Shown: positions 1,805-43,573, counted from the stretch's first letter. The stretch is DNA of 43,573 bases from a virus (IMGVR_UViG_3300048577_000543:1-43573); one strand, 5' to 3'. Numbers and translations are program-made. Notes: generated by a model from the sequence alone, not told the origin.

Positions 1805-1898
1805 GGAAGCGTTTCGTCACCGGTGTGGCGCCTGGACTTCAAATCCAGTGTGTGGTCGAGAGGTCACAGGTAGGTTCGACTCCTATACGCTTCCGCCA
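1805..1898 (+). tRNA. selC: tRNA-Sec (anticodon UCA), prophage integration target
   Basis: 8-bp acceptor stem GGAAGCGT/ACGCTTCC, discriminator G plus CCA, anticodon arm CTGGA-CTTCAAA-TCCAG, long variable arm, 5-bp T stem around TTCGACT; 94 nt. Confidence 0.96.
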
Positions 1899-1913
1899 TT
1901 GTTAAGAAAAATT

Positions 1914-1960
1914 CTCCTAGAGGGTGCCTAAAAGGTACTCTGTGACACCCTCTAGGAGTT
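1914..1960 (+). terminator. Phage-supplied hairpin immediately after selC
   Basis: 13-bp inverted repeat CTCCTAGAGGGTG (1914-1926) / CACCCTCTAGGAG (1946-1958); short U-tail only. Confidence 0.55.
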
Positions 1961-1962
1961 CA

Positions 1963-1991
1963 TTGTGTCCCCCTTTGTGCCCCCGTTGTGC
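1963..1991 (+). repeat. Tandem direct repeats, probable integrase arm-type binding sites
   Basis: TTGTGTCCCCC (1963), TTGTGCCCCCG (1975), TTGTGC (1986), ~65-90 bp from the tRNA end. Confidence 0.55.
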
Positions 1992-2022
1992 TTCAAGTCC
2001 TTCTATTTCCATATATTTTTTA

Positions 2023-2045
2023 TATACTATTTCCCAACATTGGGA
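2023..2045 (+). promoter_or_regulatory. Candidate sigma70 -10 box (TATACT) followed by palindrome TCCCAA-CA-TTGGGA over the start site
   Basis: TATACT 2023-2028; palindrome 2032-2045; weak -35. Confidence 0.45.
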
Positions 2046-2081
2046 TATTGTTTTTCATAAACATGAAAGAGTGGACGTTTT

Positions 2082-2228
2082 ATGGTTAATTTAAAGGGAT
2101 TACTGGCAAAGGCGGTCTTTGGGTTCCTCTTACTTCCTAGACTCATTGGAGGAGGAACCTGGATAGGAACGTGCTTTGGCTATTTGATTTGCTTGGCTTT
2201 TCTCTATGCGGTCATCCGTGGCTACTAA
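2082..2228 (+). CDS. 48-aa hydrophobic membrane protein (not in ORF track)
   Basis: Hand translation MVNLKGLLAKAVFGFLLLPRLIGGGTWIGTCFGYLICLAFLYAVIRGY; GAGTGGA upstream. Confidence 0.5.
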   Translation: MVNLKGLLAKAVFGFLLLPRLIGGGTWIGTCFGYLICLAFLYAVIRGY

Positions 2229-2565
2229 ACGACTTACCAAGGGCTGGATATGGTATAAAACATAGTACAAGTAACTGAAAACATTGGATAAGGGCATTTA
2301 ATTGGCCTCCCTTAGGAGAAGAGACCGCCGAAAGCCTACGGGTCGAGTACGCGGGTCAAGTGTGTTGACTCATCCCTCTTTTTAAAAAGGTGGATAGACG
2401 AGCATGACTCTCTTCACAGAAACCCCAAGCCTTCAAAGACGTAGCCTCTCAGGGATGACCCCTGATGCTTCCTATTGCCTGGGTCTCGTAAGCCACTCCC
2501 TGTCATGAAAAAATGGCAAATTGCTTACAACCTCTATCCCACTGACTTTTTGGGGGTAGGGGGCA

Positions 2566-2745
2566 CTATAAGAATCTTATAGGTATCCTATAGGACTCCT
2601 TTAACATCTACTCTAAGAGGATAATATTAAGAGAGAATACTCATAAAGATGTCTTAGTTATTAAGACTCTCTATTACTCTCTCTTTTGATATTCTCAGCT
2701 TAAAGAGGATGTCTAAAGAGTCTTTAAGTTAACTTTCCTAAAAAC
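2566..2745. repeat. AT-rich array of short palindromes upstream of RNAP
   Basis: CTATAAGAATCTTATAG (2566-2582) then AGGTATCCTATAGGACTCCT; shares TCTTATAGGTATCCTA exactly with 36393-36408. Confidence 0.6.
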
Positions 2746-2763
2746 TTGAGGAAGGTATCAAGT

Positions 2764-5169
2764 ATGGCCTTTGATAACGACTACGATAGGCAAGTGTCAT
2801 TAGAGCAAGACTCGGCTAAAGAAGCCATTAATGCTTACAAAGCTGCCCTCCTTAAAGCTCGTCAGAAAGGCTCTAACCTAGAGTCTTTTGCACCTGAAAT
2901 GTGGTTGTTAAAGAAGAGTCTTAAACCTCTGGCGGATGCTATTGAAGTATTCGTTAAGGAGAAGAAAAAAGGAACCAATAGGTTACGGCCTGTCAGAGTG
3001 TTTTTGAGTCACTTGAATCTTTTGGAAGTGTCATTTCTTACTGTGCGGTATATCCTGAATAAGACCGTGGAGCTTACCCCTATTCAGTCAGTCGCAATAG
3101 GTCTAGCCCGTGATTTGAAATTCCATGCCGACTTCGAGACGCTCAAAAAGGACCAGCCTAAGCTTATTAAAGCTATCAAGGCTAGAACCAACCTCGATTC
3201 TCTTGTCCACCGTGTTCGGGTCTATAAGGCCAATATGCGCCGGTTTGAAATTAAAGGCATGACTGAGGATGAGCTTTTGTCCCTTGGCCTTTGCGTCATC
3301 GACCTTTTGATTTCGTCCAGTGGGATTATCAAGGCCGTAGACTACACGAAGCGGGGGAAGTCATTTAAAGGCCTTGTGTTGGCCGATGAGGTGTTATCTT
3401 GGCTGAATAAACAACATGGTCGTTGCGAACTCAGTCACGTCATAAACCCACCTATGGTTGTCCCTCCGAGGGTTTGGACTGACAACGAAAATGGTGGGTA
3501 TCTCACTAACTTCGCCTCAGGGCGTCAGCGTCTCGTAAAGACCCGCCATACTGAGGTACAATCCTGGCTGGCCAAGCCTGAAGCGGTCTACAGCGCGGTC
3601 AATGCTCTGCAAAGTACGCCTTGGAAGATTAACGCTAAGGTTGCTCAGGTATTGGAGGAAGTAACTAATCTAGGAGGAGGCTTTTCGGGAATACCGGCAC
3701 TTGATAGCCAGGAAAGGGAGCTTTTACAGAAACCCTGGGGAGACTCAAAGGCTGAATACGAGCAATTTAAGGCTACTAATCCTGAAGATGTTCGTAGCTA
3801 TTGCATAAAGGCCAAAGGTCTCCATGACGCATGGGCAAGGGAAACCTCAAAGAGGTCAGCTTTTTTTATGCAACTTCAGTTTGCCAGAAAGTATGGGAAA
3901 GAGTCTCAAATCTATTTTCCTTGGTTCCTTGACTGGCGTGGGAGGATGTACCCGACCGTAAGCTTTGTTAATCCTCAATCGGATGATGTTGGTAAGGGTC
4001 TACTGGAGTTTTCCGTTGGCAAACAACTTACCAAATCTGGAATATACTGGTTGTATGTTCACACTGCTAACGTCGCTGGAGTGGATAAAGTACCCTTTGA
4101 TGACCGTGTAAAGTTGGTTGAAGAGAACATGGAGGTTATTCTTGCTGTAGCTCAAGACCCGCTATCTAACCGTTTTTGGGTTGACGTAGATTCCCCCTTT
4201 AAGTTCTTAGCTTGCTGCTTTGAACTTGAGAGGCTCCACAAAGAGGGCCTGAGTTCCTTTGTGACTCATCTTCCTGTCGCCATGGATGGTTCATGTAATG
4301 GCCTTCAGCATTACTCAGCGCTTCTCCGGGATGACATCGCTGGAGCTGCTGTCAATCTCATCCCTCAGGATAAGCCTGGAGACATCTATGCCGACGTGGC
4401 TAAGGTTGTCTCAGAATTGGTTGACTCATCCACGGATGAAGAGGCTGTATGGTGGCGGGGACAGGTAACCCGGTCTGTCGTCAAAAGAAACGTCATGACC
4501 CTTGTGTATGGGGTGACCTCGTATGGCATGGGAGACCAGCTTCACGAGGTTGTCAAAGAGTTAGGAATGGATTGTGGTGGGATGGAGCTAAAAGCCGCTA
4601 CATGGCTTGCTACGCGTGTTTACGAGGGCATTGGGTCCGTGGCCTCATCCGCAAAGACCGGGATGGCATGGCTACAAGAATGCGCGAGAATAGTTGCTAA
4701 GACCAATGAGCCGTTGTCATGGACTACCCCAAGTGGTTTCAAAGTCTGGCATGGCTATTGGGAAACCAAAAGGAAGGTTATTAAAACCGTCTTTGGTGGT
4801 TGCACGATGAAGCTCTCATTGAAAGAAGACACAGGAACAATCTCATCCCGCTCACAAGCTAACGGTATTGCCCCGAACTTCATTCACTCATTAGATGCTT
4901 CCCACTGCGTTCTCACAATCAATAAAGCCCAAGAAAGGGGCCTTACTGACTTCGCTATGATTCACGATTCCTATGGCTGCCACGCATCCGACGTGGAAAC
5001 CCTTAATGCTACCCTTAGGGAGGCGTTCGTGGACATGTATAGTGGGGACGTACTTATGGACTTTAAAAAGGAGGTTGAGCAGAATAGTAGTGTAATCTTG
5101 CCAGATTTGCCCAAAAAGGGGACGCTCAATATCGAAGGTGTGTTGCAATCACGCTATTTTTTTGCCTAG
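2764..5169 (+). CDS. T7-like single-subunit DNA-directed RNA polymerase (gp1)
   Basis: Motifs LDWRGRMYP, DGSCNGLQHY, RSVVKRNVMTLVYG, APNFIHSLDASH, IHDSY; ATG 2764 with GAGGAAGG RBS. Confidence 0.98.
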   Translation: MAFDNDYDRQVSLEQDSAKEAINAYKAALLKARQKGSNLESFAPEMWLLKKSLKPLADAIEVFVKEKKKGTNRLRPVRVFLSHLNLLEVSFLTVRYILNKTVELTPIQSVAIGLARDLKFHADFETLKKDQPKLIKAIKARTNLDSLVHRVRVYKANMRRFEIKGMTEDELLSLGLCVIDLLISSSGIIKAVDYTKRGKSFKGLVLADEVLSWLNKQHGRCELSHVINPPMVVPPRVWTDNENGGYLTNFASGRQRLVKTRHTEVQSWLAKPEAVYSAVNALQSTPWKINAKVAQVLEEVTNLGGGFSGIPALDSQERELLQKPWGDSKAEYEQFKATNPEDVRSYCIKAKGLHDAWARETSKRSAFFMQLQFARKYGKESQIYFPWFLDWRGRMYPTVSFVNPQSDDVGKGLLEFSVGKQLTKSGIYWLYVHTANVAGVDKVPFDDRVKLVEENMEVILAVAQDPLSNRFWVDVDSPFKFLACCFELERLHKEGLSSFVTHLPVAMDGSCNGLQHYSALLRDDIAGAAVNLIPQDKPGDIYADVAKVVSELVDSSTDEEAVWWRGQVTRSVVKRNVMTLVYGVTSYGMGDQLHEVVKELGMDCGGMELKAATWLATRVYEGIGSVASSAKTGMAWLQECARIVAKTNEPLSWTTPSGFKVWHGYWETKRKVIKTVFGGCTMKLSLKEDTGTISSRSQANGIAPNFIHSLDASHCVLTINKAQERGLTDFAMIHDSYGCHASDVETLNATLREAFVDMYSGDVLMDFKKEVEQNSSVILPDLPKKGTLNIEGVLQSRYFFA

Positions 5170-5196: not shown

Positions 5197-5490
5197 ATGA
5201 AGCTGAATACTCGACGCATGATTTTCAAAGCTTTCTCTTTGAACCGTAAAGGTGTTCCGCTCCCGGTGGATATGTGCATGGCACTTAGTGCTGATGGAAT
5301 CAACCCGGACGCTCTTATGAGCTACTTCGATAATGGGAGCTTGTCCCCGAAAGAAGATGACTACCTCTCTGAAGAGAACCTGTTGGAGGCCGTTGCCTAC
5401 TACTGTCCCTCTTCTGATGAGGATGACCAGGGAGTTATCGTGCCGTTGCATTTGCAGGCCGATATCTTTGGTCGCACTTTGGACCTCTAA
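5197..5490 (+). CDS. Hypothetical acidic phage protein
   Basis: ATG 5197 with GGGAG RBS; fills the gap between RNAP and SSB. Confidence 0.65.
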   Translation: MKLNTRRMIFKAFSLNRKGVPLPVDMCMALSADGINPDALMSYFDNGSLSPKEDDYLSEENLLEAVAYYCPSSDEDDQGVIVPLHLQADIFGRTLDL

Positions 5491-5509
5491 ACTTATAATA
5501 GGAAACATT

Positions 5510-6157
5510 TTGGCTGATAAGCAGAAGTTTTTGAACATCGTTACCCCGGCTGGTTCAGCATTGTGGTGCAAGATTTTTGTCCCTGATACCAAGTACAAAG
5601 CCGAAGGTGAATACTCGACTAAGATGGTCCTGCCTGCTGATGAAGCGGGTGAACTCATCGACATCCTTAAAGAGGAAGTCGAAATAATCTGGAATGAAAC
5701 TATCCCAGGTTTGAAACCGGCGGTGGCGAAGCAGATGGCCCGTAGCTACCCCTTTACTGACGAACTGGATGAGGAGACCGGAGACGAAACCGGTAATCTC
5801 ATCTTCAAGTTCACCACTCGTGCCTCCTACAAAAAGAAAGATGGCTCCACGGGAGAAAACTCTGTGGCCCTCTTTGATGCTTCGGGAAAGGCAATCCCTA
5901 AGGGGGCTTCTCCGCGCATCGGCAACGGTTCCCTCATCAAGGTGTCCGCCACGGTCATCCCTTTCAGTTCCCCTGGCACCAAGAAAATCGGCGTCTCTTT
6001 GCGCCTCCGTGCGGTCCAGCTCGTGCAGCTTGAAGAATACGCTGGCGGGGACGGTGGGAGCTATGGCTTTGGTGCTTCGGATGGCTACACCTACAAGCCT
6101 GACGAAAGCGGTCCTGATGCTGGTGGAGAAGCTAACGACGAGGATGTGCCCTTCTAA
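5510..6157 (+). CDS. T7 gp2.5-like single-stranded DNA-binding protein
   Basis: TPAG..W....PDTKY, GVSLRLRAVQLVQL, acidic tail ending in F (EDVPF); TTG start after AGGA. Confidence 0.93.
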   Translation: MADKQKFLNIVTPAGSALWCKIFVPDTKYKAEGEYSTKMVLPADEAGELIDILKEEVEIIWNETIPGLKPAVAKQMARSYPFTDELDEETGDETGNLIFKFTTRASYKKKDGSTGENSVALFDASGKAIPKGASPRIGNGSLIKVSATVIPFSSPGTKKIGVSLRLRAVQLVQLEEYAGGDGGSYGFGASDGYTYKPDESGPDAGGEANDEDVPF

Positions 6158-6158
6158 T

Positions 6159-6557
6159 ATGGCTTATCCTCGTAGACACTGTAGTGCGGCTTACCGTTCG
6201 GGCCTAGAAGAGAAAGTGTGCGGTATGCTGGACGCTGCTGGGGTAAAGTACGAATATGAACCTTTCAAGATACCGTACATTACCCCTGCTAAAAAGCACA
6301 CGTATACCCCGGATGTCGTTTTGTCCAACGGCATCATTTGCGAATTGAAGGGCATGTTTGCTCTTGTAGACAGACAGAAGCACGAGTTTCTCAAAGAGCA
6401 ACACCCCGAGATTGACATTCGTATCGTCTTTCAGAACCCAAATACGACACTCTCTAAGCGGTCTAAGACACGCTATAGGGATTGGGCCGATTCTCGCGGC
6501 ATCAAATGGGCCGCTAAAACCATACCTCAGGAGTGGATTAATGAGCCAGCAAAGTGA
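6159..6557 (+). CDS. T7 gp3-like endonuclease I (Holliday junction resolvase)
   Basis: YRSGLEEKV, YTPDVVL.NGIICELKG, DRQKH, QHPEIDIRIVF, IPQEW. Confidence 0.96.
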   Translation: MAYPRRHCSAAYRSGLEEKVCGMLDAAGVKYEYEPFKIPYITPAKKHTYTPDVVLSNGIICELKGMFALVDRQKHEFLKEQHPEIDIRIVFQNPNTTLSKRSKTRYRDWADSRGIKWAAKTIPQEWINEPAK

Positions 6558-6780
6558 AATTCAATTCAAGCCCAGTCACGCTACTCAGGAAGAGTTCGTT
6601 CGGAACTACCTTTTGAGTGGCCTTGCTCTGACCCCTGTGAAGGCCATCGCTGAAGCTAAGATTTTCCGTCTGGCTGCGGTCATTCACACTCTCAAAAACA
6701 AAGGCATGAAGATTCGCTCTGTGCGACGTATGAGCTTTACCGGGAGACCGTACTGTGAATACTCCCTCGACACAATCTAA
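6541..6780 (+). CDS. Small winged helix-turn-helix protein
   Basis: LTPVKAI...IFRLAAVIHTLKNKGMKI...Y.L pattern typical of small phage wHTH proteins. Confidence 0.7.
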   Translation: MSQQSEIQFKPSHATQEEFVRNYLLSGLALTPVKAIAEAKIFRLAAVIHTLKNKGMKIRSVRRMSFTGRPYCEYSLDTI

Positions 6781-6934
6781 GGAAGAAGCCTTAGAACACA
6801 TCAAGACCAATAGGCTCTTTGTGTTTGGAGAAGGGCCTACTTGGTTCACATGTGAAGATGACTGCGGCCATGTCTTTCCGGTATTCTTTAAAAAGGAGGA
6901 GCATGGCGAAAAACAAATTGCCCCCGTTCGGTAA
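6755..6934 (+). CDS. 59-aa hypothetical protein (not in ORF track)
   Basis: GTG 6755 with GGGAG RBS; MNTPSTQSKEEALEHIKTNRLFVFGEGPTWFTCEDDCGHVFPVFF...; bridges HTH and primase genes. Confidence 0.5.
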   Translation: MNTPSTQSKEEALEHIKTNRLFVFGEGPTWFTCEDDCGHVFPVFFKKEEHGEKQIAPVR

Positions 6935-8615
6935 CTTCATCCAACATAAAGAATGCCCTCTTTGTGGCTCGTCCGATGCTCTTTCTGAGTTCGATAGTGG
7001 ACACGAATACTGCTACTCCTGCAATACCCTCGTTACATTCCCAGGAAAAGATGGAACCCCTAAGAAGGCGAAGGCTTCCAGTGGTAATGGCATCCCTTTG
7101 CTACAAGCTGAAGCTATTCAATTAAAAGCACGCGGCATTTCACAAGAAACATGCCGCAAGTTCAATTACCATGTGGGTAAAGACGAAAAAGGTAATTGGG
7201 TCCACATCGCCAACTACTTTAAAGAACGTCAGCTTGTTGCTCAACACCTCAGGGGAGAAGACAAGAAGTTCTCTTGGCGTGGAGATTCCAAAGACGTTGA
7301 ACTGTTTGGTCAGAATATCTGGCCAGCTAAGGGTTCAAGAGTAGTTGTTACTGAAGGTGAAATTGATTGCATGTCAATTAGCCAGTCCTTCAATAATAAA
7401 TGGCCCTGCGTCTCAATCCCTTCGGGCTGTAATAGTGCCCGCTCGGCTATCGAAAGAAACATTGAGTGGCTAGAGGGTTACGAAAGTATCGTCTTGGCCT
7501 TTGATGATGATGCACCAGGAAGAAAAGCAACAGAAGACGCTGTTCTGTTATTCACCCCTGGGAAAGTGAAGGTGATGTCCTTCCAGGGTCTCAAAGATGC
7601 TAATGAGCTTCTCCTTGCGAAAGATGCCAGCACGGTTTGCTCGTGTGTCTTTCAGGCCCGAGAGTACAGGCCAGACGGTGTTGTAAGTGGTTGTGACCTC
7701 CTTGATGAAGTCATGAAGGAACCTCAGAGTGGCTATTCTGTCCTGTATCCTAAACTCATGGAGAAGACCATGGGACTACGGAAAGGTGAGCTAGTCATGT
7801 TCACGGCCGGCTCAGGGATAGGTAAAAGCACTGTTGTAAATGAGATAGCGTATGACCTCATGATGCGGCACAAGCTCTCTATTGGCATCGTAGCTTTAGA
7901 AGAGAGTAAGAAAAGGACTGCTGAGAGATACATTTCTATTCGCATGAACAAGCCCATCCATTTGACAAGAGAGGGTGTTACCAATGAAGAAATAAAAGAA
8001 GCCTTCGATGCTACAGTAGGAACCGGAAGATTCTGGTTGTATGACCATTGGGGTTCTTTGCAAGTAGACACTCTACTGGCAAAGCTTCAATTCATGGTCA
8101 TATCCTGCAAGGTTGACTTCATCATTTTGGACCATATCAGTATCATCGTTTCTGGATTGGCTGAAAGTGAAGAGAGTGAAAGAAAAACACTTGACCGCTT
8201 GATGACTGCTCTACGTCAGCTTGTTGAAAGGACTGGAGTAGGAATGCTTGCGGTAGTCCATTTGAAGAGACCCAAGGACGGGAAGAGCTACAATGAAGGT
8301 CGCCAAGTATCCCTTACAGACCTAAGAGGCAGTGCTTCTTTAGAGCAAATCTCAGACATGGTTATAGCACTAGAGAGAGACCAACAGGATGATAACGATG
8401 AGGACTCTCAAGGTGAAGCTGAGGAGTCTAACATATCAGTCATCCGTGTATTAAAAAACCGTCCTATCGGTAAAACCGGAGTAGCTGACACCCTGAGTTA
8501 CTGTCACGAAACCGGACGCCTATCTGTAGTGGATAACCACAATGAGTATTTTCCTACCCGAAAGAAGAAGGGCAAAGGAAATAAACCTGTCACTCATAAT
8601 AACCCCGGCTTTTAA
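6903..8615 (+). CDS. T7 gp4-like primase/helicase
   Basis: Zn finger CPLCGSSD...YCYSC, TOPRIM TEGEIDC and FDDDAPG, Walker A AGSGIGKST, ILDHISI, DLRGS; ATG 6903 after AGGAGG. Confidence 0.97.
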   Translation: MAKNKLPPFGNFIQHKECPLCGSSDALSEFDSGHEYCYSCNTLVTFPGKDGTPKKAKASSGNGIPLLQAEAIQLKARGISQETCRKFNYHVGKDEKGNWVHIANYFKERQLVAQHLRGEDKKFSWRGDSKDVELFGQNIWPAKGSRVVVTEGEIDCMSISQSFNNKWPCVSIPSGCNSARSAIERNIEWLEGYESIVLAFDDDAPGRKATEDAVLLFTPGKVKVMSFQGLKDANELLLAKDASTVCSCVFQAREYRPDGVVSGCDLLDEVMKEPQSGYSVLYPKLMEKTMGLRKGELVMFTAGSGIGKSTVVNEIAYDLMMRHKLSIGIVALEESKKRTAERYISIRMNKPIHLTREGVTNEEIKEAFDATVGTGRFWLYDHWGSLQVDTLLAKLQFMVISCKVDFIILDHISIIVSGLAESEESERKTLDRLMTALRQLVERTGVGMLAVVHLKRPKDGKSYNEGRQVSLTDLRGSASLEQISDMVIALERDQQDDNDEDSQGEAEESNISVIRVLKNRPIGKTGVADTLSYCHETGRLSVVDNHNEYFPTRKKKGKGNKPVTHNNPGF

Positions 8616-8643
8616 AAAAGGGGTAAGGAGAAATCAATAACTT

Positions 8644-10443
8644 GTGATTTTCTTTGACATTGAAACAGATGGTCTCCTTGAAGAACTTACTAAACTCCAC
8701 TGCATAGTCCTCTACGACGACGCTACAAATACCTCCCTCGTGTATGACCCTGAGCATCCTGAAAACCTGACTCCAATACTGACAAAGCTTTCCGAAGCCG
8801 AGGCCATTTGCGCTCACTACGGCATAGCCTTCGACGTTCCAGCCTTGAAGAAGCTTTTTCCCTGGTGGTCTCCTAAAGGGAAAGTCGTAGATACCGTTAT
8901 CATGGGGCGGCTCTGCTACCCTGACATCAAAGCCACTGACTACGGTCTGTGGAGAAAGGGAATCCTCCCTGGTAATCTCATAGGTTCCCATAAGCTCAAG
9001 GCGTGGGGCTATCGCATTGGAGAGTACAAAGGAACCTTTGGAGAGACATCGGATTGGTCTACCTGGACTCCTGAAATGACGACCTATTGCAAGCAAGACG
9101 TCGTTGTTTTGGCCAAGCTCTACAAATACTTGATGGAGAACGGTAAACCCTCGAATGAGTCCTTAAACATCGAACTTCAAGTAGCCTCAATCATCTTCCA
9201 ACAGACGATTAACGGGGTTCCCTTCGATATCAAGAAGGCCGAAGCCCTCTACTTAACATTGAAACAGCGTCAAGAGGAAGTTCTAAAAGAGCTTCAGGCT
9301 ACATTCCCTCCGTTCTACTCCAAGGTCAAAGAGTTTACACCCAAGGCTGACAACAAGCGCTTCGGCTACCGTGCCGGGTGTCCTATGACCAAGATAGAAA
9401 GGAATGAGTTCAACCCTGCCTCCCGCCACCACATCGCCCATGTCTTGATGAAGCACAAGAAATGGAAACCCTTAGAGTACACCGATAACTCCGGTGAGCC
9501 TAAAATCGACGAGACCATTCTAGCGGCTCTCCCATGGCCTGAAGCAAAGCTCATCGCTGAGTACCTCATGCTTGATAAGCGTGTTGGTCAGCTAGGCAAT
9601 GGGAAAGAAGCCTGGATGCGCTGGTTTAACCCGAAAGATGGAAAAATCCATGGGGACGTGAATACCCTTGGATGCGTCACCGGCCGGATGTCCCACTCTA
9701 AGCCTAACCTTGGCCAAGTCCCTGCCTCCTACTCTCCATACGGCATCGAGTGCCGAGAGCTATTCTATGCCCCTCCTGGTTACGTCATGGTGGGCTGTGA
9801 TGCGTCTGGCCTTGAGGCTCGGAATCTTGGCCACTACATGGCTTGGTACGATGATGGAGCTTACGCAAAGGTCATAGTCGAAGGACGCAAAGAGGACGGC
9901 ACTGAGATTCACTCTGTGAACATGAGGGCCTTAGGTATTGCGTCCCGTGATGATGCCAAGACGTGGTTCTACGCTTTCATGTACGGCGCTGGCGATGGAA
10001 AGCTAGGGGCTATCCTAGGGAAGGGTCCATTAGAAGGGAAGAGAGGCAAGAAACGCTTCCTAACGGCTCTCCCTGCATTAGGAAAGTTAACTGATGCTGT
10101 TAAAGCTGCGGCTAAACGGGGATACCTCATAGGCCTTGACGGGAGACGCCTTCCTGTCCGTTCCGAACATGCTGCCCTTAATACTCTTCTTCAGTCAGCC
10201 GGAGCGGTTGTTATGAAGAAGGCCCTTTGTATCTGCTATGGCCGTCTTATTGCTTCCGGTGTTGAGTTCTACTTTGTTCTTAACATCCACGATGAGTTCC
10301 AGATTCTTACACCAATAGCCTCCGCTCGGTTCGTAGGTGAAACAGCTAGGCAGTCTATTATAGATGCCGGGGTGTTCTTTGATTTCAAGTGTCCATTGGA
10401 TGGTGAATACAAGATTGGACAGAATTGGGCAGAGACCCACTAA
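8644..10443 (+). CDS. T7 gp5-like family A DNA polymerase with 3'-5' exonuclease
   Basis: FDIETDGL, DASGLEAR, RDDAKTWFYAFMYG, HDE, C-terminal NWAETH. Confidence 0.98.
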   Translation: MIFFDIETDGLLEELTKLHCIVLYDDATNTSLVYDPEHPENLTPILTKLSEAEAICAHYGIAFDVPALKKLFPWWSPKGKVVDTVIMGRLCYPDIKATDYGLWRKGILPGNLIGSHKLKAWGYRIGEYKGTFGETSDWSTWTPEMTTYCKQDVVVLAKLYKYLMENGKPSNESLNIELQVASIIFQQTINGVPFDIKKAEALYLTLKQRQEEVLKELQATFPPFYSKVKEFTPKADNKRFGYRAGCPMTKIERNEFNPASRHHIAHVLMKHKKWKPLEYTDNSGEPKIDETILAALPWPEAKLIAEYLMLDKRVGQLGNGKEAWMRWFNPKDGKIHGDVNTLGCVTGRMSHSKPNLGQVPASYSPYGIECRELFYAPPGYVMVGCDASGLEARNLGHYMAWYDDGAYAKVIVEGRKEDGTEIHSVNMRALGIASRDDAKTWFYAFMYGAGDGKLGAILGKGPLEGKRGKKRFLTALPALGKLTDAVKAAAKRGYLIGLDGRRLPVRSEHAALNTLLQSAGAVVMKKALCICYGRLIASGVEFYFVLNIHDEFQILTPIASARFVGETARQSIIDAGVFFDFKCPLDGEYKIGQNWAETH

Positions 10444-10460
10444 CATAAGAAAGGTGGAAT

Positions 10461-10850
10461 ATGAAGCTTACAGAGACGATGGTTGAAAAGCTGGCAGCAA
10501 CTTGTGAAACACAGTACGAGTCTTTTGAGTCCTATTTTGAAGATGTTCTCATTCTCTTAATAGAGTTCAATCGGGCTGAAACATTCATTAACAAAGTGGC
10601 CTTTGGCTCTGCTCTTTTTGTATCCCTGTTAGGCTCCTCATTCCTGATTTCTTCCAATGCTAAAGCCAAGAGTGTTGTCAGTTCCATCATCCTCTATATT
10701 GGGTCTGTTCTTGAAAGATTCCCTAAGTACGACGATGACGCTTTTGAAAACATCGTATGTGCGGTAGCAACTAAGATTCTGAACGGTGGAAGTTACGATA
10801 AGGCGAGTGATGAAATCGCAACTCTTATTCTCGAAATGGTGGAGAAGTAA
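10461..10850 (+). CDS. Hypothetical protein
   Basis: 129-aa ORF with AAGGTGG RBS, tightly packed. Confidence 0.7.
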   Translation: MKLTETMVEKLAATCETQYESFESYFEDVLILLIEFNRAETFINKVAFGSALFVSLLGSSFLISSNAKAKSVVSSIILYIGSVLERFPKYDDDAFENIVCAVATKILNGGSYDKASDEIATLILEMVEK

Positions 10851-10852
10851 GC

Positions 10853-11826: not shown

Positions 11827-11828
11827 TT

Positions 11829-12810: not shown

Positions 12811-12837
12811 ATCAACACACAAAGAGGAACCGTATAT

Positions 12838-13218: not shown

Positions 13219-13238
13219 GAAACGAACTGAATTGAATG

Positions 13239-13275
13239 GAGGGGTCTAGTATTTTACTAGGCCTCTCTTTCTTTT
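13239..13275 (+). terminator. Intrinsic terminator
   Basis: GAGGGGTCTAGTA-TTT-TACTAGGCCTCTC followed by TTTCTTTT. Confidence 0.8.
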
Positions 13276-34400: not shown

Positions 34401-34616
34401 ATGACTATCACTCGGAAAGAACAGCTAGACCAATTGTGGGATTTAATTCTGAAGGAACTCATCACACGTATCAAAGAAGGAAAAGCGTCGTCGGCTGATT
34501 TGGCAAATGCTATTCGGTTCATCAAAGAGGGGGACATTGATTCCCTCAAGGATACGTTGCCGAATGCTGAGTTCCTGAAAGACTTGGAAGACATTGATTT
34601 TCAGGAGCTTAATTAA
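34401..34616 (+). CDS. Terminase small subunit (gp18)
   Basis: RIKEGKASSADLANAIRFIKE..I; synteny; AGGAGG RBS. Confidence 0.88.
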   Translation: MTITRKEQLDQLWDLILKELITRIKEGKASSADLANAIRFIKEGDIDSLKDTLPNAEFLKDLEDIDFQELN

Positions 34617-36349: not shown

Positions 36350-36374
36350 CATTAATTATGACCTTTGCTACCCT
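36346..36374 (+). promoter_or_regulatory. Sigma70-type promoter at the end of terL
   Basis: TTGACA (36346-36351), 17 bp, TACCCT (36369-36374) with TG extended -10. Confidence 0.6.
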
Positions 36375-36550
36375 ATAAGATTCTTATAGTATTCTTATAG
36401 GTATCCTAAGAGGATATCTCTAAGGATTCCTTTAGGTATCTCTCTAAGAATATTCTATTATATTTCTCTTTCATATTCTCTATCTCTAAGAAGATATAAT
36501 AGGATACTCTAGGGATACCTAAGGGAGTCCTCTTGGGATATCTCTTGAGG
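36373..36550. repeat. Second AT-rich short-palindrome array (origin/packaging-like region)
   Basis: CTATAAGATTCTTATAG (36373-36389), TCTTATAGGTATCCTA (36393-36408), recurrent GGATAT/GTATC/CTAAG units. Confidence 0.65.
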
Positions 36551-36764
36551 GCAGAGTTAATGAGAGGAAGAAGAAAGAAATGTCTTGCCTCTCAGTACTG
36601 GATAGGTCATATTTTAAGATTGCCCTCTAGATGGTCAAATAAGAGCTTCTAGGTATCCAGGTGGAGAATGATGAGGAAAGATTGCCAGGATGGATTCTAG
36701 GGCCTATACGCGAAGCCTCAGGGGCATCTCTGTGGATGCCTTAAGCTACACAAGAGGGGTTGTG

Positions 36765-37145
36765 ATGAGAAAGATGGGATTGATTGGTGGGATGTTCCTA
36801 GTCATTACCCTTACTGCCTGTGGCCCCTTTGTCCATGTTGATAAAGTTTCCCCTGAGGAAGCCTCTAGGGTTCAAGACAAGGTTAAGATTTATAACAACT
36901 CCCAATTGTTTGGTAAGAGCTTTGAAGTCGTGAATGTCATTGAGGGCAACTCGTGCAAGAGTAAGACCTGGGATAAGCCAGCCTCAAGGCCTGCGGCTAT
37001 CGAACAGCTACGGTTCCAGGCATACAGGCTTGGAGCCAACGGCATTACGAACATCCAATGCCATAACCGAGAGGAAACCTCTTTGAGCACCAATTGTTGG
37101 GACTTGATATCCTGTACTGCTGAGGCCGTGAAGGTAAGCGAGTAG
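36765..37145 (+). CDS. RcsF-like lipoprotein (moron)
   Basis: Lipobox LTAC; VKIY...GKSF.....IEGNSC......PAS...A...L...A..LGANG.....C...C....C..EA resembles the RcsF core with four Cys. Confidence 0.8.
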   Translation: MRKMGLIGGMFLVITLTACGPFVHVDKVSPEEASRVQDKVKIYNNSQLFGKSFEVVNVIEGNSCKSKTWDKPASRPAAIEQLRFQAYRLGANGITNIQCHNREETSLSTNCWDLISCTAEAVKVSE

Positions 37146-37149
37146 GGGA

Positions 37150-37540
37150 TACCTTCGATATTTTTATTGCAAATTTCTGAACCTGTACCCTCGATAGGCG
37201 ATTGAGGGAGTTCCCCCGTGTGCCCACCTGATGACCTACGTGTAGGGGATTCTTTGCGCCTTCCTTACGTCCTGCCTCATCTTCCCTTGCGTCTCCAGCC
37301 TGCCAAGCACTCTCTATGCCTCTCTGTGCCTACCCTAGAAAGTCACAAGGTAGCTCTTAGCCAGCCTATAGCCTCATCATCCATTAGATAAGTAATCTAG
37401 TGCCTACCTATCCTGGCCCACGGGATGTCAAATTAGCCTTAACACTCCTTATATGCGTCCAAACGTGGGATGCTGCCTCTATCCTCGCCTGAATCTCTCA
37501 AGTTGCACGAATCACTCACACATTTAACGCTATTTGTTTT
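37150..37540. other. Non-coding probable virion genome-end (terminal repeat/packaging) region
   Basis: No convincing ORF; lies between the terminase module and the early genes; low-complexity GCCT-rich tract. Confidence 0.45.
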
Positions 37541-37694: not shown

Positions 37695-37725
37695 GCTCTT
37701 TCAAGATTCCGAAAGCTCTTTGAAA
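37695..37725 (+). promoter_or_regulatory. Two boxA-like antitermination elements
   Basis: GCTCTTTCAA (37695) and GCTCTTTGAAA (37715) in the early leader. Confidence 0.5.
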
Positions 37726-37790
37726 TAGGCTGCACTAGAGGGAAACACTGGCTACCAGTCAATGCCTTTAGGGTTATACAGGGATGAGTC

Positions 37791-37847
37791 AACACCTTAT
37801 CAAAGCTCCATCAAGAAAAGTCTTGGTGGGGCAAATGGTAAGATGTT
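37791..37847 (+). other. Long hairpin before the first early genes (RNase III site candidate)
   Basis: GCTCCATCAAGA-AAAG-TCTTGGTGGGGC extended by AACACCTTATCA/TGGTAAGATGTT. Confidence 0.6.
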
Positions 37848-37967: not shown

Positions 37968-38111
37968 ATGTTCACGAGCAAGAGACTTAATAGGTTTGCC
38001 TTGCATAGAGACTGGAGGGAATACGCTTGGATTATTCAAGTCCATTATGAAATTCTCTCACTACGGAAGGCATTGGGTTACACAAAGAACTTTGCAAGAG
38101 GATGGAAATAA
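37968..38111 (+). CDS. 47-aa early protein (not in ORF track)
   Basis: GGGGGTATCTACAATG start context resembles those at 38619 and 40245; MFTSKRLNRFALHRDWREYAW... Confidence 0.5.
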   Translation: MFTSKRLNRFALHRDWREYAWIIQVHYEILSLRKALGYTKNFARGWK

Positions 38112-38113
38112 GC

Positions 38114-38311
38114 ATGTCGTCATCATCTTATCCTATTCAGGCTGAATACCATGTAACTGGAATCCTAACCAATGGCACACGCTTTAAGACAATCAAAACA
38201 TCAAGCTATATACATGCCATGTGTATAAACCTTTGGTGTGGCTCGGTATGGTTAGTTGAAGACGCCAAACGTAAGCTTATAAGACGTGTTCAAAATGGAG
38301 TATATCAATAA
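38114..38311 (+). CDS. Early hypothetical protein
   Basis: YHVTG....G.RFK...HAMCINLW.GSVW pattern; tight packing. Confidence 0.7.
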   Translation: MSSSSYPIQAEYHVTGILTNGTRFKTIKTSSYIHAMCINLWCGSVWLVEDAKRKLIRRVQNGVYQ

Positions 38312-38436
38312 TGAGACACATCCTAGAAATCCTCTCATCATTTGCGTGGATTACTCCAAGGTCAGCACGTAAAGCGGCTTGTATTATCTGGCCTGCTTAT
38401 GCTGAAGAGATTCTTGCATACCCGTTCTTTTGGTAA
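38311..38436 (+). CDS. 41-aa early protein (not in ORF track)
   Basis: TAATG coupling, GGAG RBS; MRHILEILSSFAWITPRSARKAACIIWPAYAEEILAYPFFW. Confidence 0.5.
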   Translation: MRHILEILSSFAWITPRSARKAACIIWPAYAEEILAYPFFW

Positions 38437-38466
38437 ACCTTTTAATATTTAAAGGAGCTTCATACC

Positions 38467-38604
38467 ATGATATCTGTTTTAAATCCTCTTCCGGTTATCA
38501 TTGTTCTTACGTTGTTAACCCTTACGGTTGGTGGTTTTATCTCATTCTGGTGGCCTCTTGGGTTCCTTGGCATTTCTGTTTTAGCCACACTATTTGATAT
38601 CTAA
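38467..38604 (+). CDS. 45-aa 2-TM early membrane peptide (not in ORF track)
   Basis: AAGGAG RBS; MISVLNPLPVIIVLTLLTLTVGGFISFWWPLGFLGISVLATLFDI. Confidence 0.6.
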   Translation: MISVLNPLPVIIVLTLLTLTVGGFISFWWPLGFLGISVLATLFDI

Positions 38605-38618
38605 GAGGGGTCTTTACC

Positions 38619-39287
38619 ATGTCTATATCCCCAAACATCTACGTTGCGTCACTGTCTGATTACAACAACGGCAACCTATTAGGGGTCACAATCGAGTTAG
38701 AAGGAAAGGACGAATCCGAAGTATGGCAAGAGATTAACGCCATGCTTAAGCAAAGCAAGTACCCTAATGTCATGCGTAGAGACTGCGAATGTCTATCTTG
38801 TGGTCATAAGTGGACCCAAGACGTTAACAGTAAGACACCACTTGCTTGCCCTGAGTGCCTGGAAGATGACCCGGATTTTATGGAATATTCTTTAGCTTAT
38901 CCTTCTGCCGAAGAGTTCGCCATCCATAGTTACGACCTCGGAGGTATCCGCATATCGGAGTATGAGGCTATTAAGGATGTCCTTAAGATTTCCGATGCCC
39001 TTGTAGAACACGAAGAGGATGGAAACGGAGAAACATTTGCCTTGTATGTTCAGAATGTAGGCGTTGAAGCGGCCATAGATAACTATGAAGAAGCCTTTTT
39101 AGGTGAATACGACAGCGAAAGGGCTTACGCCGAGAACCTTTTAGATGACACTGGCCAGCTTGATGCCATCCCGGAGAACCTTAGAGGATACTTTGACTAT
39201 GAGTCCTTTGCTCGGGACTTATTCATGGATGGTTATAGTTCCGAAAGGCTGTCTAATGGTGGTGTTGCGGTGTTCTTGGATGTGTAA
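38619..39287 (+). CDS. ardA: ArdA antirestriction DNA mimic with inserted Zn ribbon
   Basis: IYVASLSDYNNG.L.G, EEFAIH.YD, IPENLRGYFDYESFARDL; very acidic. Confidence 0.92.
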   Translation: MSISPNIYVASLSDYNNGNLLGVTIELEGKDESEVWQEINAMLKQSKYPNVMRRDCECLSCGHKWTQDVNSKTPLACPECLEDDPDFMEYSLAYPSAEEFAIHSYDLGGIRISEYEAIKDVLKISDALVEHEEDGNGETFALYVQNVGVEAAIDNYEEAFLGEYDSERAYAENLLDDTGQLDAIPENLRGYFDYESFARDLFMDGYSSERLSNGGVAVFLDV

Positions 39288-39304
39288 GAAGGAGCATTAT
39301 TCTC

Positions 39305-39586
39305 ATGAAAGAAATAGATTTCACGCGGCCTACTTGGGGCCATGCTTTGCATCCTGGGACAGTTCATTCAATTGACACTAGAAGTTATTTCCAAAGACTC
39401 TTAAACTACAAGCCAAAGCCTGTATATAGTGTAATGTGTCATTGTCGTCTGTGCCCTCAAATTGGAGACAGCATAAGATTTAACTCTAAAGACGGAGAAG
39501 GGAGGGCCAAAATATTAGAGGTAATCCCATGCGGAGACCCTAACGATATGTTTACATTAGAAATTGTGGTGTTCTCGGATATCTAA
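39305..39586 (+). CDS. Early hypothetical protein
   Basis: AAGGAG RBS, 93 aa, WGHA...DPNDMF. Confidence 0.75.
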   Translation: MKEIDFTRPTWGHALHPGTVHSIDTRSYFQRLLNYKPKPVYSVMCHCRLCPQIGDSIRFNSKDGEGRAKILEVIPCGDPNDMFTLEIVVFSDI

Positions 39587-39612
39587 CTAGAAGGTAAAGA
39601 GGGCAGGATATT

Positions 39613-39813
39613 ATGACCAAAAGAATTTGTAAAACGTGCCTTATGTATGATGAGCCTACAAACATATATAATGGTTCTAAGGGGGTATGCAATCATTTGA
39701 CACGGAAGCAAGCCAAATGCCTAGCAGAGTATCTTCCTAACGGCTTAGGTAATGGATGTTATATCGAAGTAACCGTGTCTGATGATTATTGTTGTGACGA
39801 ATACATCAACTAG
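39613..39813 (+). CDS. Small Cys-rich early protein
   Basis: CKTC...GVC...DYCCDEY; AGGA RBS. Confidence 0.65.
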   Translation: MTKRICKTCLMYDEPTNIYNGSKGVCNHLTRKQAKCLAEYLPNGLGNGCYIEVTVSDDYCCDEYIN

Positions 39814-40037
39814 GATAGAAATTCTTGTATGCCGTCATCTTCTCGGCGGCACTATGGCAGGCATGTGCTTGTCATACATTAGCCGGGAAACCAACACAGG
39901 ATAGGCTTTTGATTCGTACTTTGTTAGTGGGGTTGGGACGTCTACAGGTGCTAGTGTGTGTTAGACCATACATAAACATTCTGCCCAACTCCGTTAACAA
40001 GGTGCGAATGTAGAGAAGCATACTTAACTAAAACAAA

Positions 40038-40229
40038 ATGGTGAGGGCAATGGACTATAGATTGATTAACCTTGACCTAAATGTGGCCTTAGCGGCTGTG
40101 CATGGCATTAAATGCGACCTTTCTAGATTATATAACCAACAGATTAAAGGCGCACAATTGTATGAAATTGCAAAAAACCTTCGAGCGGTGGCTGGCTTTT
40201 TAGATAAATTAGCAGAAGATATACACTAA
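40038..40229 (+). CDS. Early hypothetical protein (start may be 40050)
   Basis: GAGGG RBS precedes the second ATG. Confidence 0.55.
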   Translation: MVRAMDYRLINLDLNVALAAVHGIKCDLSRLYNQQIKGAQLYEIAKNLRAVAGFLDKLAEDIH

Positions 40230-40244
40230 TAGGGGGTCTTCACA

Positions 40245-40517
40245 ATGAATAACACTAGGCGCAAACAAATTGATAAGGTCTTAGCGTCCATTTCGGACAT
40301 TCGGGACTCTTTAAGGGAATTAGTTGAGACGGTAGACGGTCTAATGTGTGAGGAGCAAGACGCTTTTGATAACATGCCTGAGGGCCTTCAAGGAAGCGAG
40401 AAAGGGGAAAAGGTAGAAGAGGCCATATACAGGCTTGAATCCTCTTTCCAGTCTATTGACCAAGCTGTTTCTTGTCTTGATGAAGCTGAATCAGACCTTG
40501 AAGATGCAAAGGAGTAG
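40245..40517 (+). CDS. Acidic coiled-coil early protein
   Basis: MNNTRRKQI...EEQDAFDNMPEGLQGSEKGE pattern; strong RBS. Confidence 0.8.
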   Translation: MNNTRRKQIDKVLASISDIRDSLRELVETVDGLMCEEQDAFDNMPEGLQGSEKGEKVEEAIYRLESSFQSIDQAVSCLDEAESDLEDAKE

Positions 40518-40522
40518 TTTAC

Positions 40523-41074
40523 ATGAAGATTAATCGCAAACATCCTAAAGGCGCGTCACGTATAGCGGCCCTAGGGCGTCAAATAGAGGGTTATAGGGCT
40601 AACGAGGCTATTATGTCCTATGCAAACCAAAAGGACCGTGAAAGGGCTAATAGGGCCGAGCAATGGGCTAATAAGGTCTTAGATATGGTTCGCAATCTCA
40701 CCGGGGCAGACTTGAGGCCCAGGGAAAGTAACCTAGATGTTTCCTCGGGGTGTGTCCAGGTTCCTCATAAGATGAATCTTAACCCTTCCTTTATATCTCC
40801 AGGCTCCCCTATTGAAGACCTTTCATATAAGGTAGTCTCTTTAAACGTCCTTGAGTTAGCCATAAGGAACAATCGGGAAAACCTTAGTACCTATGTGGAG
40901 CTTCGTATACGCAGAAATGGTTTCGGTAAGACTATCGCTTATGCTGTCTCCGATTCCTGCTTTGCAGCACATAATGGGCTACCAATGTACTTTAAGGAGT
41001 ACATGGCAGAGAAGATACTTAATGGCTTATGTGAAAAGTTTAGGGAAGAAAGAGGGTATTCTGATGGCAGATAA
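40523..41074 (+). CDS. Early hypothetical protein
   Basis: 183-aa ORF, AAGGAG RBS. Confidence 0.7.
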   Translation: MKINRKHPKGASRIAALGRQIEGYRANEAIMSYANQKDRERANRAEQWANKVLDMVRNLTGADLRPRESNLDVSSGCVQVPHKMNLNPSFISPGSPIEDLSYKVVSLNVLELAIRNNRENLSTYVELRIRRNGFGKTIAYAVSDSCFAAHNGLPMYFKEYMAEKILNGLCEKFREERGYSDGR

Positions 41075-41294
41075 TGACGCCAAGCTTTTCCATGCCCCTC
41101 CGTGGCTTTTCCGGTGCATACATGAGAGAAAGAAAGCGTTTGAAAGGACGCTTTCGCATGTTCCGCATAGCAAACTTGAAGGGCCTTTGAGGGGGTTCAA
41201 AGCTACGATAGTCATCATTGACGACATAGGGCTTGACTTTGGCCAACGAGTGAGCAAGGGGGAAGTATGCGAAGGCGCATTGCCGACTACTTAG
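41064..41294 (+). CDS. Early hypothetical protein
   Basis: ATG 41064 with GAGGG RBS, overlapping the upstream gene end. Confidence 0.5.
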   Translation: MADNDAKLFHAPPWLFRCIHERKKAFERTLSHVPHSKLEGPLRGFKATIVIIDDIGLDFGQRVSKGEVCEGALPTT

Positions 41295-41413
41295 AAAAAA
41301 TGTCGGTAGGATTCTTGGTAGGGGCCTATTTTCAGGAGTCCAGCCTAGCGGCCCTTTTTAGTGTATTATCGCTAGGTTATTGTTTGAGTATGACCAGGAG
41401 GTTAGCTAAATGA
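41267..41413 (+). CDS. 48-aa membrane peptide (not in ORF track)
   Basis: AAGGGGG RBS; MRRRIADYLEKMSVGFLVGAYFQESSLAALFSVLSLGYCLSMTRRLAK. Confidence 0.6.
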   Translation: MRRRIADYLEKMSVGFLVGAYFQESSLAALFSVLSLGYCLSMTRRLAK

Positions 41414-41526
41414 GTGCCAATAGCGTCCTTTGGCTGGCTTTCATTGTCTGCACTGGTCTTTACATTTATGGACTGACCCTCCCGCCTGACAAGCCTAATA
41501 AGCGGCCCGGTCGAGGCTGCAAATAG
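41410..41526 (+). CDS. 38-aa single-TM peptide (not in ORF track)
   Basis: AGGAGG RBS, ATGA overlap; MSANSVLWLAFIVCTGLYIYGLTLPPDKPNKRPGRGCK. Confidence 0.6.
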   Translation: MSANSVLWLAFIVCTGLYIYGLTLPPDKPNKRPGRGCK

Positions 41527-41550
41527 CTCCCTTAAGCCTTCCTCTTCTTT

Positions 41551-41586
41551 AAGGCCCTGGCCTAACCAACCGGGGCTTTTCCTTTT
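41551..41586 (+). terminator. Intrinsic terminator closing the early operon
   Basis: AAGGCCCTGG / CCGGGGCTTT stem followed by TCCTTTT. Confidence 0.8.
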
Positions 41587-42076
41587 CTAAGTTACCCCAA
41601 GCAAATCTCCTAGCTATCCTGTCTAGTTTCCTTCTTTGTTTCTATTATATAAAGATTTTTTCACGATTGCTTTATCCATGTTAAAAATCATGTCTTGTAT
41701 AAGAGTGTTATCTGACATGAATATTCCTGGGGTGTAATAGATTCAAGTATTTTCTTTTTACAGTGTAACCGAGTTTAAATTTAGAGCGACTTAATTACTC
41801 GTTGTTTTGTAATGCATTCTATTGGCAGATATTTGCATTATAAGGAGTAATGCCAGTATAGTTATCATTCTAACAGTTAATTATTGCTAAGTTGCATAAT
41901 ATGGCCATAGTCGATAAATAATAGAATAGAAGTTTTCGCTTCATTCTTCGGGTAAAAGAATTACATTGACGTCATTACGCACAGGTAATATTCGGGATGC
42001 GAACTAAAGACTTTCGTTGAGTGGAAAAAGGACTTTCCAAAAACTCTTGACTAAACATTTCAGAGGAGCTAGTCCG

Positions 42077-42310
42077 ATGACTGTATGCACCCTAAGGCCT
42101 ACTGTTTATTCCTTGGAAATCACTAACGAATCTGTGTTTATCTCAGTTAAGACAGTAGGTGAAATGGAAGACGTTGATGGGCCTGGGGACCATGAATGCT
42201 CTAATTTCTCAGATTTGGGAGACCTCACCACGCAACAAAAGGACAAATTATGGATGCTATTATCAGATTTAAATGCGCTCTTGAATTTGCCCATGAGCAA
42301 TGCGGTGTAG
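42077..42310 (+). CDS. Hypothetical protein upstream of the regulator
   Basis: ATG 42077 with GAGGAG RBS; overlaps the next gene by 61 nt. Confidence 0.45.
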   Translation: MTVCTLRPTVYSLEITNESVFISVKTVGEMEDVDGPGDHECSNFSDLGDLTTQQKDKLWMLLSDLNALLNLPMSNAV

Positions 42311-42549
42311 AGACTAAGGGGCTATTGACATTCCTTACCTTAGCTTCTTTTCGTCGTTTATCGAAGGTGGAGTTGGGGGCACATTGTAAGTTACCTCCTG
42401 CCACTGCCCATAACATAGTGGTAAAGCTCATTGAAAAAGGGCTTATAAAACAGTATTCGTCGCCGCAAGGGGGTAATAGGACTGATTTGGAAATTACTGT
42501 AAAAGGGAGTGAGATAGCAAAAATGATTGCTACTAAACTTACAGCCTAA
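42250..42549 (+). CDS. MarR-like winged-helix transcription regulator
   Basis: [30 protein letters not shown]....GGNR...ITVKG. Confidence 0.85.
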
Positions 42550-42565
42550 AAAAGGGGGTCAGCCC

Positions 42566-43573
42566 ATGGGGATACACCTTAGGGGTAGTATTTGGTACTA
42601 CAAGTTTAAGGTCCGGGGCCATGTAATTAGGGGTTCCACTTCTACATCCAATGAGCAAGAAGCCCTAGAGTTTGAAACTAAGATAAAGAAACAAGTTTTG
42701 GCAGATTTAGAGGAGTCTGCTAAAGAAAAAAGTTCCATGAAGCTAGCGGGGGCTATTGACAGAATACAAGCTGAAAGGTTTGTTTACAATAAGTCTCCAG
42801 ATACCCCAAAAGCGCACCTTCTAGCCATTAAGGACATCTTAGGGGACATATCTTTAGATGAGATAGACACCTCTTCGATATCCTTAATCAAAAAACACCT
42901 GTTAGGCTTGAAAAAGCAACCTGCTACAGTCAACAGGTATCTAGCGGCATTAAAAACGCTCCTTATAACAGCAAATAGGGACTGGAGAACATTACTAACT
43001 CTCCCGCCCCGGATTAGCCTTTTCCCTGAACCTCAAGGGCGCATGAAGACCTTCTCCAGCGAAGAGGAGGAGGCCATAATTCATTACTGCCTAACGGCAC
43101 AAGGGGAAGCCATGCTAGATTTGGCGTGGTTGTTTCCCTTTCTTTGCTCCTCCGGGCTGCGCTTAGGGGAGGCCGTAGCTATAACCTATGCAACCCATAT
43201 CGATTTAGGCAGCCAGGAAGTCACCCTAGAGGCCGGGATGACTAAGACCTCCCGGAAGCGCTCTGTGCCTCTATCCGAGCTTGGTGCGGCTATTCTTTCG
43301 GACCGTAATACCGGGAGGCCTAGACCGTTCATGCTGCGAGGAAATAGTTATACAAAAGCATTCTCTATGGTCAAAAAGGCCTTGGGGATGGACAAAGACC
43401 CCGACACCTGCCTTCATGCGTGTCGTCACACATTTGCGTCCAGGTTGCGAAACAAAGGGGGCGACATGCACATTGTGGGTAAGCTCCTAGGTCACTCCAG
43501 CACCTACATGACGGACAGGTATGCCCACATATGGACAGAAACCCTCAAAGAAACTGTTAAGTTACTCGATTGA
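42566..43573 (+). CDS. int: Tyrosine recombinase / phage integrase
   Basis: Arm-binding-like N-terminus WYYKFKVRG...RGST; catalytic SGLRLGE, KT, HACRH, LLGH, RYAH; ATG 42566 after AGGGGG. Confidence 0.96.

Follow-up and report, generated by a model that had tools for sequence, protein, structure and literature searches.

The 43,573-bp sequence IMGVR_UViG_3300048577_000543, called the window where the whole stretch is meant, very probably holds a genuine integrated T7-like prophage in a bacterial tRNA-Sec gene (selC), whose phage attachment site (attP) lies between the integrase gene (int) and the gene for a T7-type RNA polymerase (RNAP). The record is a provirus trimmed at gene boundaries: its first base is the first of the ATG of a methyl-accepting chemotaxis protein (MCP) gene and its last base is the last of the int stop codon. 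Both the RNAP and the integrase protein are recorded on one 510,149-bp contig, showing that the record was trimmed from a long contig. GC content is 0.62 over 1-1898 and 0.467 over 1899-43573. The phage genes all lie on the plus strand in T7 order, with T7-like replication, podovirus virion and terminase genes present, and the core phage genes are all full length with intact frames. From left to right the window contains:

1-1506, plus strand: host MCP gene, the left flank (Pfam MCPsignal)
1805-1898, plus strand: tRNA-Sec gene selC (ARAGORN; Rfam RF01852, 82.3 bits against a cut-off of 47)
about 1834-1898, plus strand: predicted attachment (att) core, the 3' ~65 bp of selC, attL at this end of the window (from partial selC copies elsewhere)
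1914-1958, either strand: terminator-like perfect inverted repeat (arms 13 bp, loop 19 nt) within the att arm next to RNAP
1963-1990, plus strand: tandem ~10-bp direct repeats seen in the sequence, likely integrase arm-type sites
2764-5169, plus strand: T7-type single-subunit RNAP, 801 aa, uninterrupted (PHROG 414, E 1.8e-232; Pfam RNA_pol)
5333-14699, plus strand: replication module with SSB, endonuclease I, HTH_39 protein, primase-helicase, DNA polymerase, small open reading frames (ORFs) and exonuclease
14726-17072, plus strand: class III ribonucleotide reductase (RNR) NrdD (14726-16624) and its activase NrdG (16605-17072)
18191-33349, plus strand: T7-like virion module with portal, scaffold, capsid, tail tube, nozzle, internal virion proteins and tail fibre
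34401-36349, plus strand: small and large terminase subunits (large subunit TerL, 34700-36349)
37185-37336 (approximate bounds), plus strand: probable packaging terminal-repeat region, the end of the virion genome (flanks resemble T7 genome ends by eye)
38102-41526, plus strand: early region with an ArdA antirestriction gene (38619-39287) and small ORFs
42250-42549, plus strand: winged-helix (MarR-like) regulator, 99 aa, candidate repressor
42566-43573, plus strand: tyrosine integrase, 335 aa (R, H-x-x-R, H and Y catalytic columns all present)

A preliminary description of this DNA had claimed the order selC, RNAP, replication, virion, terminase, non-coding interval, early genes, MarR and int. 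This order was confirmed, with the MCP gene before selC, NrdD and NrdG among the replication genes and a MarR-like helix-turn-helix (HTH) gene before int; a distance of ~35 kb between RNAP and the early region in the lysogen is supported as well. An Rfam scan of the window returned tRNA-Sec only. The host MCP is 64-68% identical over its full length to proteins from Desulfolutivibrio, Desulfovibrionaceae and Thermodesulfobacteriota metagenome-assembled genomes (MAGs), while selC matches the gene of a Solidesulfovibrio MAG at 98% identity. These identities make the host a likely member of the Desulfovibrionaceae, and it is likely an anaerobic sulfate reducer.

Since the record ends at the int stop codon, attR falls beyond it and the placement of attP between int and RNAP is inferred, with good support from three sources: integrase relatives, a related selC phage, and prophages of the Desulfovibrionales. 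In 75 of its 80 closest viral relatives the integrase gene is directly followed by a T7-type RNAP gene in the same orientation, indicating that int and RNAP are neighbours in the free phage. A scan of viral contigs for the selC 3'-end pattern found six other loci, and the same scan of metagenome contigs gave 0 matches. Partial selC copies are present at five other loci, every one beginning at tRNA position 30-31; the predicted attR is therefore a ~65-bp copy of 1834-1898. At locus L011 the order is int, 3' part of selC, RNAP; of the integrases at L001-L015, that of L011 matches the window integrase best (E 4e-38), and in a quick tree of 31 proteins the L011 RNAP clusters with the window RNAP and two metagenomic proteins (SH-aLRT 99, L011 on a long branch). 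Single-protein scans of the integrase against genome and viral contigs, and of RNAP against viral contigs, returned no relative. A T-arm pattern matched tRNA remnants in 5/75 and 8/22 int-RNAP spacers; it misses short cores and was not used as evidence.

selC is an insertion hotspot in these bacteria (L006, L008-L013), with partial selC at five loci. At L012, where an MCP gene is again followed by selC, a non-T7 provirus occupies the same junction, and tandem repeats similar by eye to those at 1963-1990 lie 3' of selC in L008, L012 and L013.

The layout recurs in the host order. A T7-type RNAP match occurred in 12/401 host-family genomes and a TerL match in 9/401 genomes of the host order; stretches were examined for ten of the former and seven of the latter (G269 was already covered, and G107 was left out). 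G262 and G317, with an RNAP match and no T7 virion genes in the examined stretches, were dropped from the prophage counts, and G019 has int and TerL without RNAP in its examined stretch. The permuted order RNAP, TerL, int of the window was found in five contigs (G156, G103, G559, G528, G516). Four of these five full-length prophages have a tRNA-Leu att repeat at both ends (17 bp in G156, 12 bp in G103, 56 bp in G528, 11-13 bp in G559); no paired att repeat was found for G516. Relative to RNAP, the tRNA runs antisense in two of them (G156, G528) and sense in the other two (G103, G559); for the selC core, L011 has the antisense and the window the sense orientation.

Two further arrangements were seen at the tRNA ends of these relatives. 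The G103 and G559 prophages appear to split the host tRNA-Leu in the anticodon loop and carry a whole phage-borne tRNA-Leu just before attR (contig C5, 325703-325790, locus L045; contig C1, 255188-255276, locus L069), reminiscent of the tRNA-dependent lysogeny described in PMC10865867. G156 has a second integrase gene, of DUF6538 type, between att and RNAP (contig C56, 145436-147088, locus L040).

As a novelty the layout finds no support. For pelagiphages attP is described as always lying between the integrase and RNAP genes, with attB in tRNA genes (bioRxiv 10.1101/410191), and for marine Autographiviridae the sites are reported as commonly between int and RNAP, both genes then adjoining host genes (PMC12361551). 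The usual published arrangement thus already has a tRNA target and places attP between int and RNAP. Like HTVC019P-type pelagiphages and marine Autographiviridae, the window has a MarR-like gene before int, a predicted attP in non-coding DNA between int and RNAP, a likely tRNA target, and int and RNAP at opposite prophage ends; HTVC019P-type pelagiphages differ in their marine aerobic hosts, 11-46 bp cores and class I RNR (nrdA/nrdF), whereas here the RNR is of class III and the selC core is predicted to span ~65 bp. The T7-like cyanophages P-SSP7 and S-TIP37 also have int followed by attP and a tRNA target; their account gives no repressor homologue and no stable lysogens (PMC8776855), whereas the window has an HTH gene and its phage element is the assembled consensus within a host contig.

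Two temperate Autographiviridae, Pseudomonas phage LUZ100 and Rhizobium/Agrobacterium phage Pasto, share with the window the T7 gene order, a tyrosine integrase that is immediately preceded by a MarR-like gene and lies upstream of a T7-type RNAP, and tRNA sequence close to int. LUZ100, S2B and Pasto are also the best isolate matches of the window RNAP (~35-36% identity, ~35.6% for LUZ100 and Pasto), and TerL is 55-56% identical to those of LUZ100 (54.6%) and Ralstonia T7-like phages. In contrast to LUZ100 and Pasto, the phage in the window is seen as an integrated prophage, with selC rather than tRNA-Leu as target, a tRNA co-directional with RNAP, NrdD and NrdG, a likely anaerobic host, and an RNAP that falls outside their group in the quick tree. 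LUZ100 is described as having a MarR-int operon, a leaky terminator after int and a phage promoter before RNAP (PMC10134795).

The label MarR for the 99-aa protein is a weak one. Pfam MarR_2 matches at 22.5 bits against a cut-off of 27; in its favour, a hidden Markov model of six MarR-like proteins that precede int in temperate T7-like phages placed it top among 454 window ORFs (E 2.7e-4). The same position is occupied by an HTH gene in G156, G103, G559, LUZ100, Pasto and HTVC019P.

Candidate control elements around selC, before RNAP and in the early region are the following:

1763-1791, plus strand: sigma70-like promoter candidate for selC, pointing toward RNAP (best site in 1690-1810, a consensus match only)
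2362-2377, plus strand: 16-bp near-dyad, candidate repressor operator (exact reverse copy at 37780-37795 in the early region)
2554-2582, plus strand: candidate phage-RNAP promoter, ~190-200 bp before RNAP (10/12 core bases shared with the 37723 site)
2566-2582, plus strand: 17-bp palindrome overlapping the 2554 candidate (recurs after TerL, about 36372-36388)
37723-37744, plus strand: best phage-RNAP promoter candidate, at a phiOL-like position (top match to a position weight matrix (PWM), 18.1)

The PWM was built from the repeated promoters of relatives, with a null maximum of 17.2 in 30 shuffles, and 1690-1810 was scanned with sigma70 weights. A shared string of 16 bp, the length of the near-dyad, was reached in 1/200 shuffles, and the 10/12 core match at 2557 has an expectation of 0.04 per strand, counted post hoc. 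General promoter and terminator scans of the window stayed at or below chance. The terminator scan allows loops of only 3-8 nt and therefore did not report the 1914-1958 hairpin, which is nevertheless real: its 13-bp arms compare with a longest of 10 in 100 shuffles, and its folding z is -3.4 to -4.0. The preliminary description had cast this hairpin as an insulator of RNAP from selC read-through, a role that looks weak: it belongs to the att arm next to RNAP, and of its two U-tracts the one on the minus strand is better (a five-T run, against a broken T tract on the plus strand). Since the hairpin travels with RNAP in both states, it would damp read-through from the int operon in the excised form as much as read-through from selC in the lysogen.

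We lean towards a prophage silenced mainly by the MarR-like repressor acting at promoters that stay with RNAP, rather than by rearrangement; taken on the condition that the prophage is genuinely integrated with this att layout, control mainly by the repressor becomes a little more probable again. The virion genome would run from the terminal repeat (~37.2 kb) through early genes, HTH gene, int, attP (selC 3' ~65 bp), RNAP, replication and virion genes to the terminase. Integration is likely the work of the phage's own tyrosine integrase, with attP between int and RNAP as its site. Strand exchange within the selC anticodon loop would leave an intact tRNA gene and yield the prophage order seen here. 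Integration would remove int-operon read-through into RNAP and place RNAP behind co-directional selC, which it follows by 866 bp. The RNAP-side hairpins behave the same whether the phage is integrated or excised, so silencing is predicted to need a repressor acting in trans. Its operator would be either the 16-bp near-dyad, which occurs both before RNAP and in the early region, or the 17-bp palindrome that overlaps the candidate RNAP promoter. Upon induction, loss of repression together with excision would let RNAP restart, with positive feedback from the phage promoter.

Control beside RNAP is made more likely by the relatives. A repeated phage-type promoter lies within 150 bp upstream of RNAP in three of the five full-length relatives (G559, G156, G103), and in G269 and G313 a CI-like repressor gene (Phage_CI_repr plus Peptidase_S24) is divergent from RNAP. 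These CI-type repressors are 256 aa long and lie in T7-like prophages at G269 contig C5, 35845-36615 (L047), and G313 contig C40, 307-1077 (L057); their combination of HTH and S24 peptidase suggests an SOS-cleavable switch.

Several observations count against an integrated prophage held by a MarR-like repressor. The record includes neither attR nor the int-att spacer, and a search for reads or contigs spanning 1898/1899 was negative in three distantly related wastewater runs of one study, which held 5-9% of the window's words as near-identical short pieces only; these pieces showed no joint at att and no usable continuation past the integrase, and do not tell the free from the integrated state. 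The HTH protein scores under every curated cut-off, and the ORF picker gave no HTH gene before int in G528, G516 or G535. With a PWM score of 8.4 the 2554 promoter candidate is within the null, and a de novo search of the window found no multi-copy phage promoter and nothing convincing. G528, G516 and G103 showed no operator-like repeat common to the pre-RNAP and early regions, and in G559 and G156 the motif common to the two regions is the phage promoter itself. In G528 the phage promoter lies between the int stop codon and the att core, with none found on the RNAP side within three mismatches. The model of MarR repression is itself a hypothesis, taken from Boeckman et al. 2022 (cited in PMC10134795), and by the account of LUZ100 its lysogens were not obtained.

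Integration without a tight lysogeny circuit, either transient as in T7-like cyanophages or trapped with decayed phage promoters, is an unlikely explanation. T7-like cyanophages are described as integrating between int and RNAP without stable lysogens (PMC8776855), and the want of a conserved multi-copy phage promoter in the window would suit it. Against it, the element is the assembled consensus on a 510-kb contig, suggesting carriage by most host cells, and its core genes have all kept their full length; the near-identical pieces in the wastewater assemblies also speak against it, with free and integrated forms not told apart.

The proposal that recombination itself sets lysis or lysogeny proved weak, as integration swaps one upstream host-RNAP promoter for another, and promoters and repressors stand beside RNAP in relatives. 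In one version RNAP is primed only by read-through across attP, from the HTH-int operon or from a phage promoter behind int, which we think improbable; that integration alone silences RNAP and excision alone starts lysis is likewise doubtful. In LUZ100, partial read-through past the post-int terminator is proposed to prime RNAP (PMC10134795), a path that integration cuts. Among natural examples, feedback on RNAP gated by recombination is best illustrated by G528, whose phage promoter stands between int and att. No clear sigma70 promoter was found before the window RNAP (1 site against 1.3 expected), which also favours the proposal. On the other side, selC and its candidate promoter point into RNAP, the terminators between att and RNAP are identical in both states, the better U-tract of the 1914-1958 hairpin is on the minus strand, and tRNA core orientation is not conserved, either between L011 and the window or among the relatives. 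A phage promoter beside RNAP is kept in three of the five full-length relatives. Transcripts from either upstream source would leak through the spacer to a similar degree, which would make recombination alone a poor switch in the window prophage.

Integration-dependent switching has a precedent in other phages. In integration-dependent immunity, attP lies inside the repressor gene. Unlike the mycobacteriophages with such immunity, the window has a non-coding att that splits no gene, and its HTH gene is whole, upstream of int and away from att. The mycobacteriophage switch, described as consisting of the three genes int, repressor and cro with recombination deciding between lysis and lysogeny (PMC3694055), lends the recombination proposal some support by example. 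There is also a small chance that, in a selC-targeting T7-like lineage of sulfate reducers, integration exchanges the promoter that primes RNAP (int operon out, selC in) and recombination thereby sets lysis or lysogeny. A companion notion is held with as little conviction: that the P' arm stops tRNA read-through but not read-through from the int operon or the phage RNAP, with G528 as a second case.

A misassembly at ~1899 joining a free T7-like phage to a host contig would account for the unseen attR and the lack of bridging reads, and is very improbable: the join coincides with the CCA end of the tRNA, arm-like repeats follow within 100 bp, the permutation point of the phage map is precisely between int and RNAP, and a selC attP occurs in a related phage.

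Returning to the genes carried by the repressor-controlled prophage that we favour, the class III RNR is real: NrdD exceeds the curated cut-offs of TIGR02827 (875 bits against 568) and NF006127, and the NrdG matches are below cut-off. It is not peculiar to this phage, being common in the host group, and NrdD and NrdG fill the exonuclease-portal interval in 6/7 relatives where it was examined, G333 being without them. The window NrdD shares 50-56% identity with NrdD of large Vibrio, Cronobacter and Desulfovibrio phages but no more than 26-28% with the NrdD that T7-like prophages of Desulfovibrionales carry in this slot, a contrast that suggests that it was acquired separately or replaced. A 2013 survey of 128 RNR-bearing phage genomes reported class II only for podoviruses (PMC3653736); the class III enzyme is usual in one slot of these prophages.

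The central layout and the HTH-int module are thus already published, and the window holds a further case of them. What is new is the likely anaerobic host group, the selC target, the divergent RNAP (~35% identical to those of isolates) and the class III RNR. Searches of the literature found no T7-like prophage in Desulfovibrio, no selC prophage with integrase in Desulfovibrio, no class III RNR in a T7-like phage, and no account of RNAP being separated from early promoters. The prophage tables of Boeckman et al. 2022 may already list Desulfovibrionaceae hosts, because two Desulfovibrionaceae papers cite that work. Temperate T7-like phages are here extended to likely Desulfovibrionaceae hosts and to selC. 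Their relatives form a set of natural variants, with the tRNA in sense or antisense, the phage promoter on either side of att, and a MarR-like or CI-like repressor, useful for asking how T7-like lysogeny is controlled, which in the literature is still a matter of hypothesis.

On G528 contig C1 the positions of interest are the promoter at 3068951 (L077) and 3025969-3026210 (L075), and a 14-bp hairpin with a T-tail precedes RNAP. Two further ORFs of the window were noted:

2082-2228, plus strand: 48-aa hydrophobic ORF between att and RNAP, possible membrane cargo (no Pfam or NCBIfam match)
36690-37145, plus strand: RcsF-like lipoprotein ORF, start likely near 36768 (Pfam RcsF above cut-off)

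The first can be compared with the small membrane ORFs that Pasto has between int and RNAP. As for the second, the annotation of vB_PaeM-G11, a lysogenic member of the Autographiviridae, likewise includes an RcsF gene (PMC10142737). Within the replication module, a strong hairpin with a T-tail at 13238-13272 (z -4.2), 3' of an ORF with an NAD-ligase domain, is a likely terminator. AT-rich tracts dense in palindromes at 2565-2730, before RNAP, and 36370-36520, after TerL, have strings of 19 and 16 bp in common. A comparable tract precedes the RNAP of L011, and such tracts are possibly related to replication origins or packaging.

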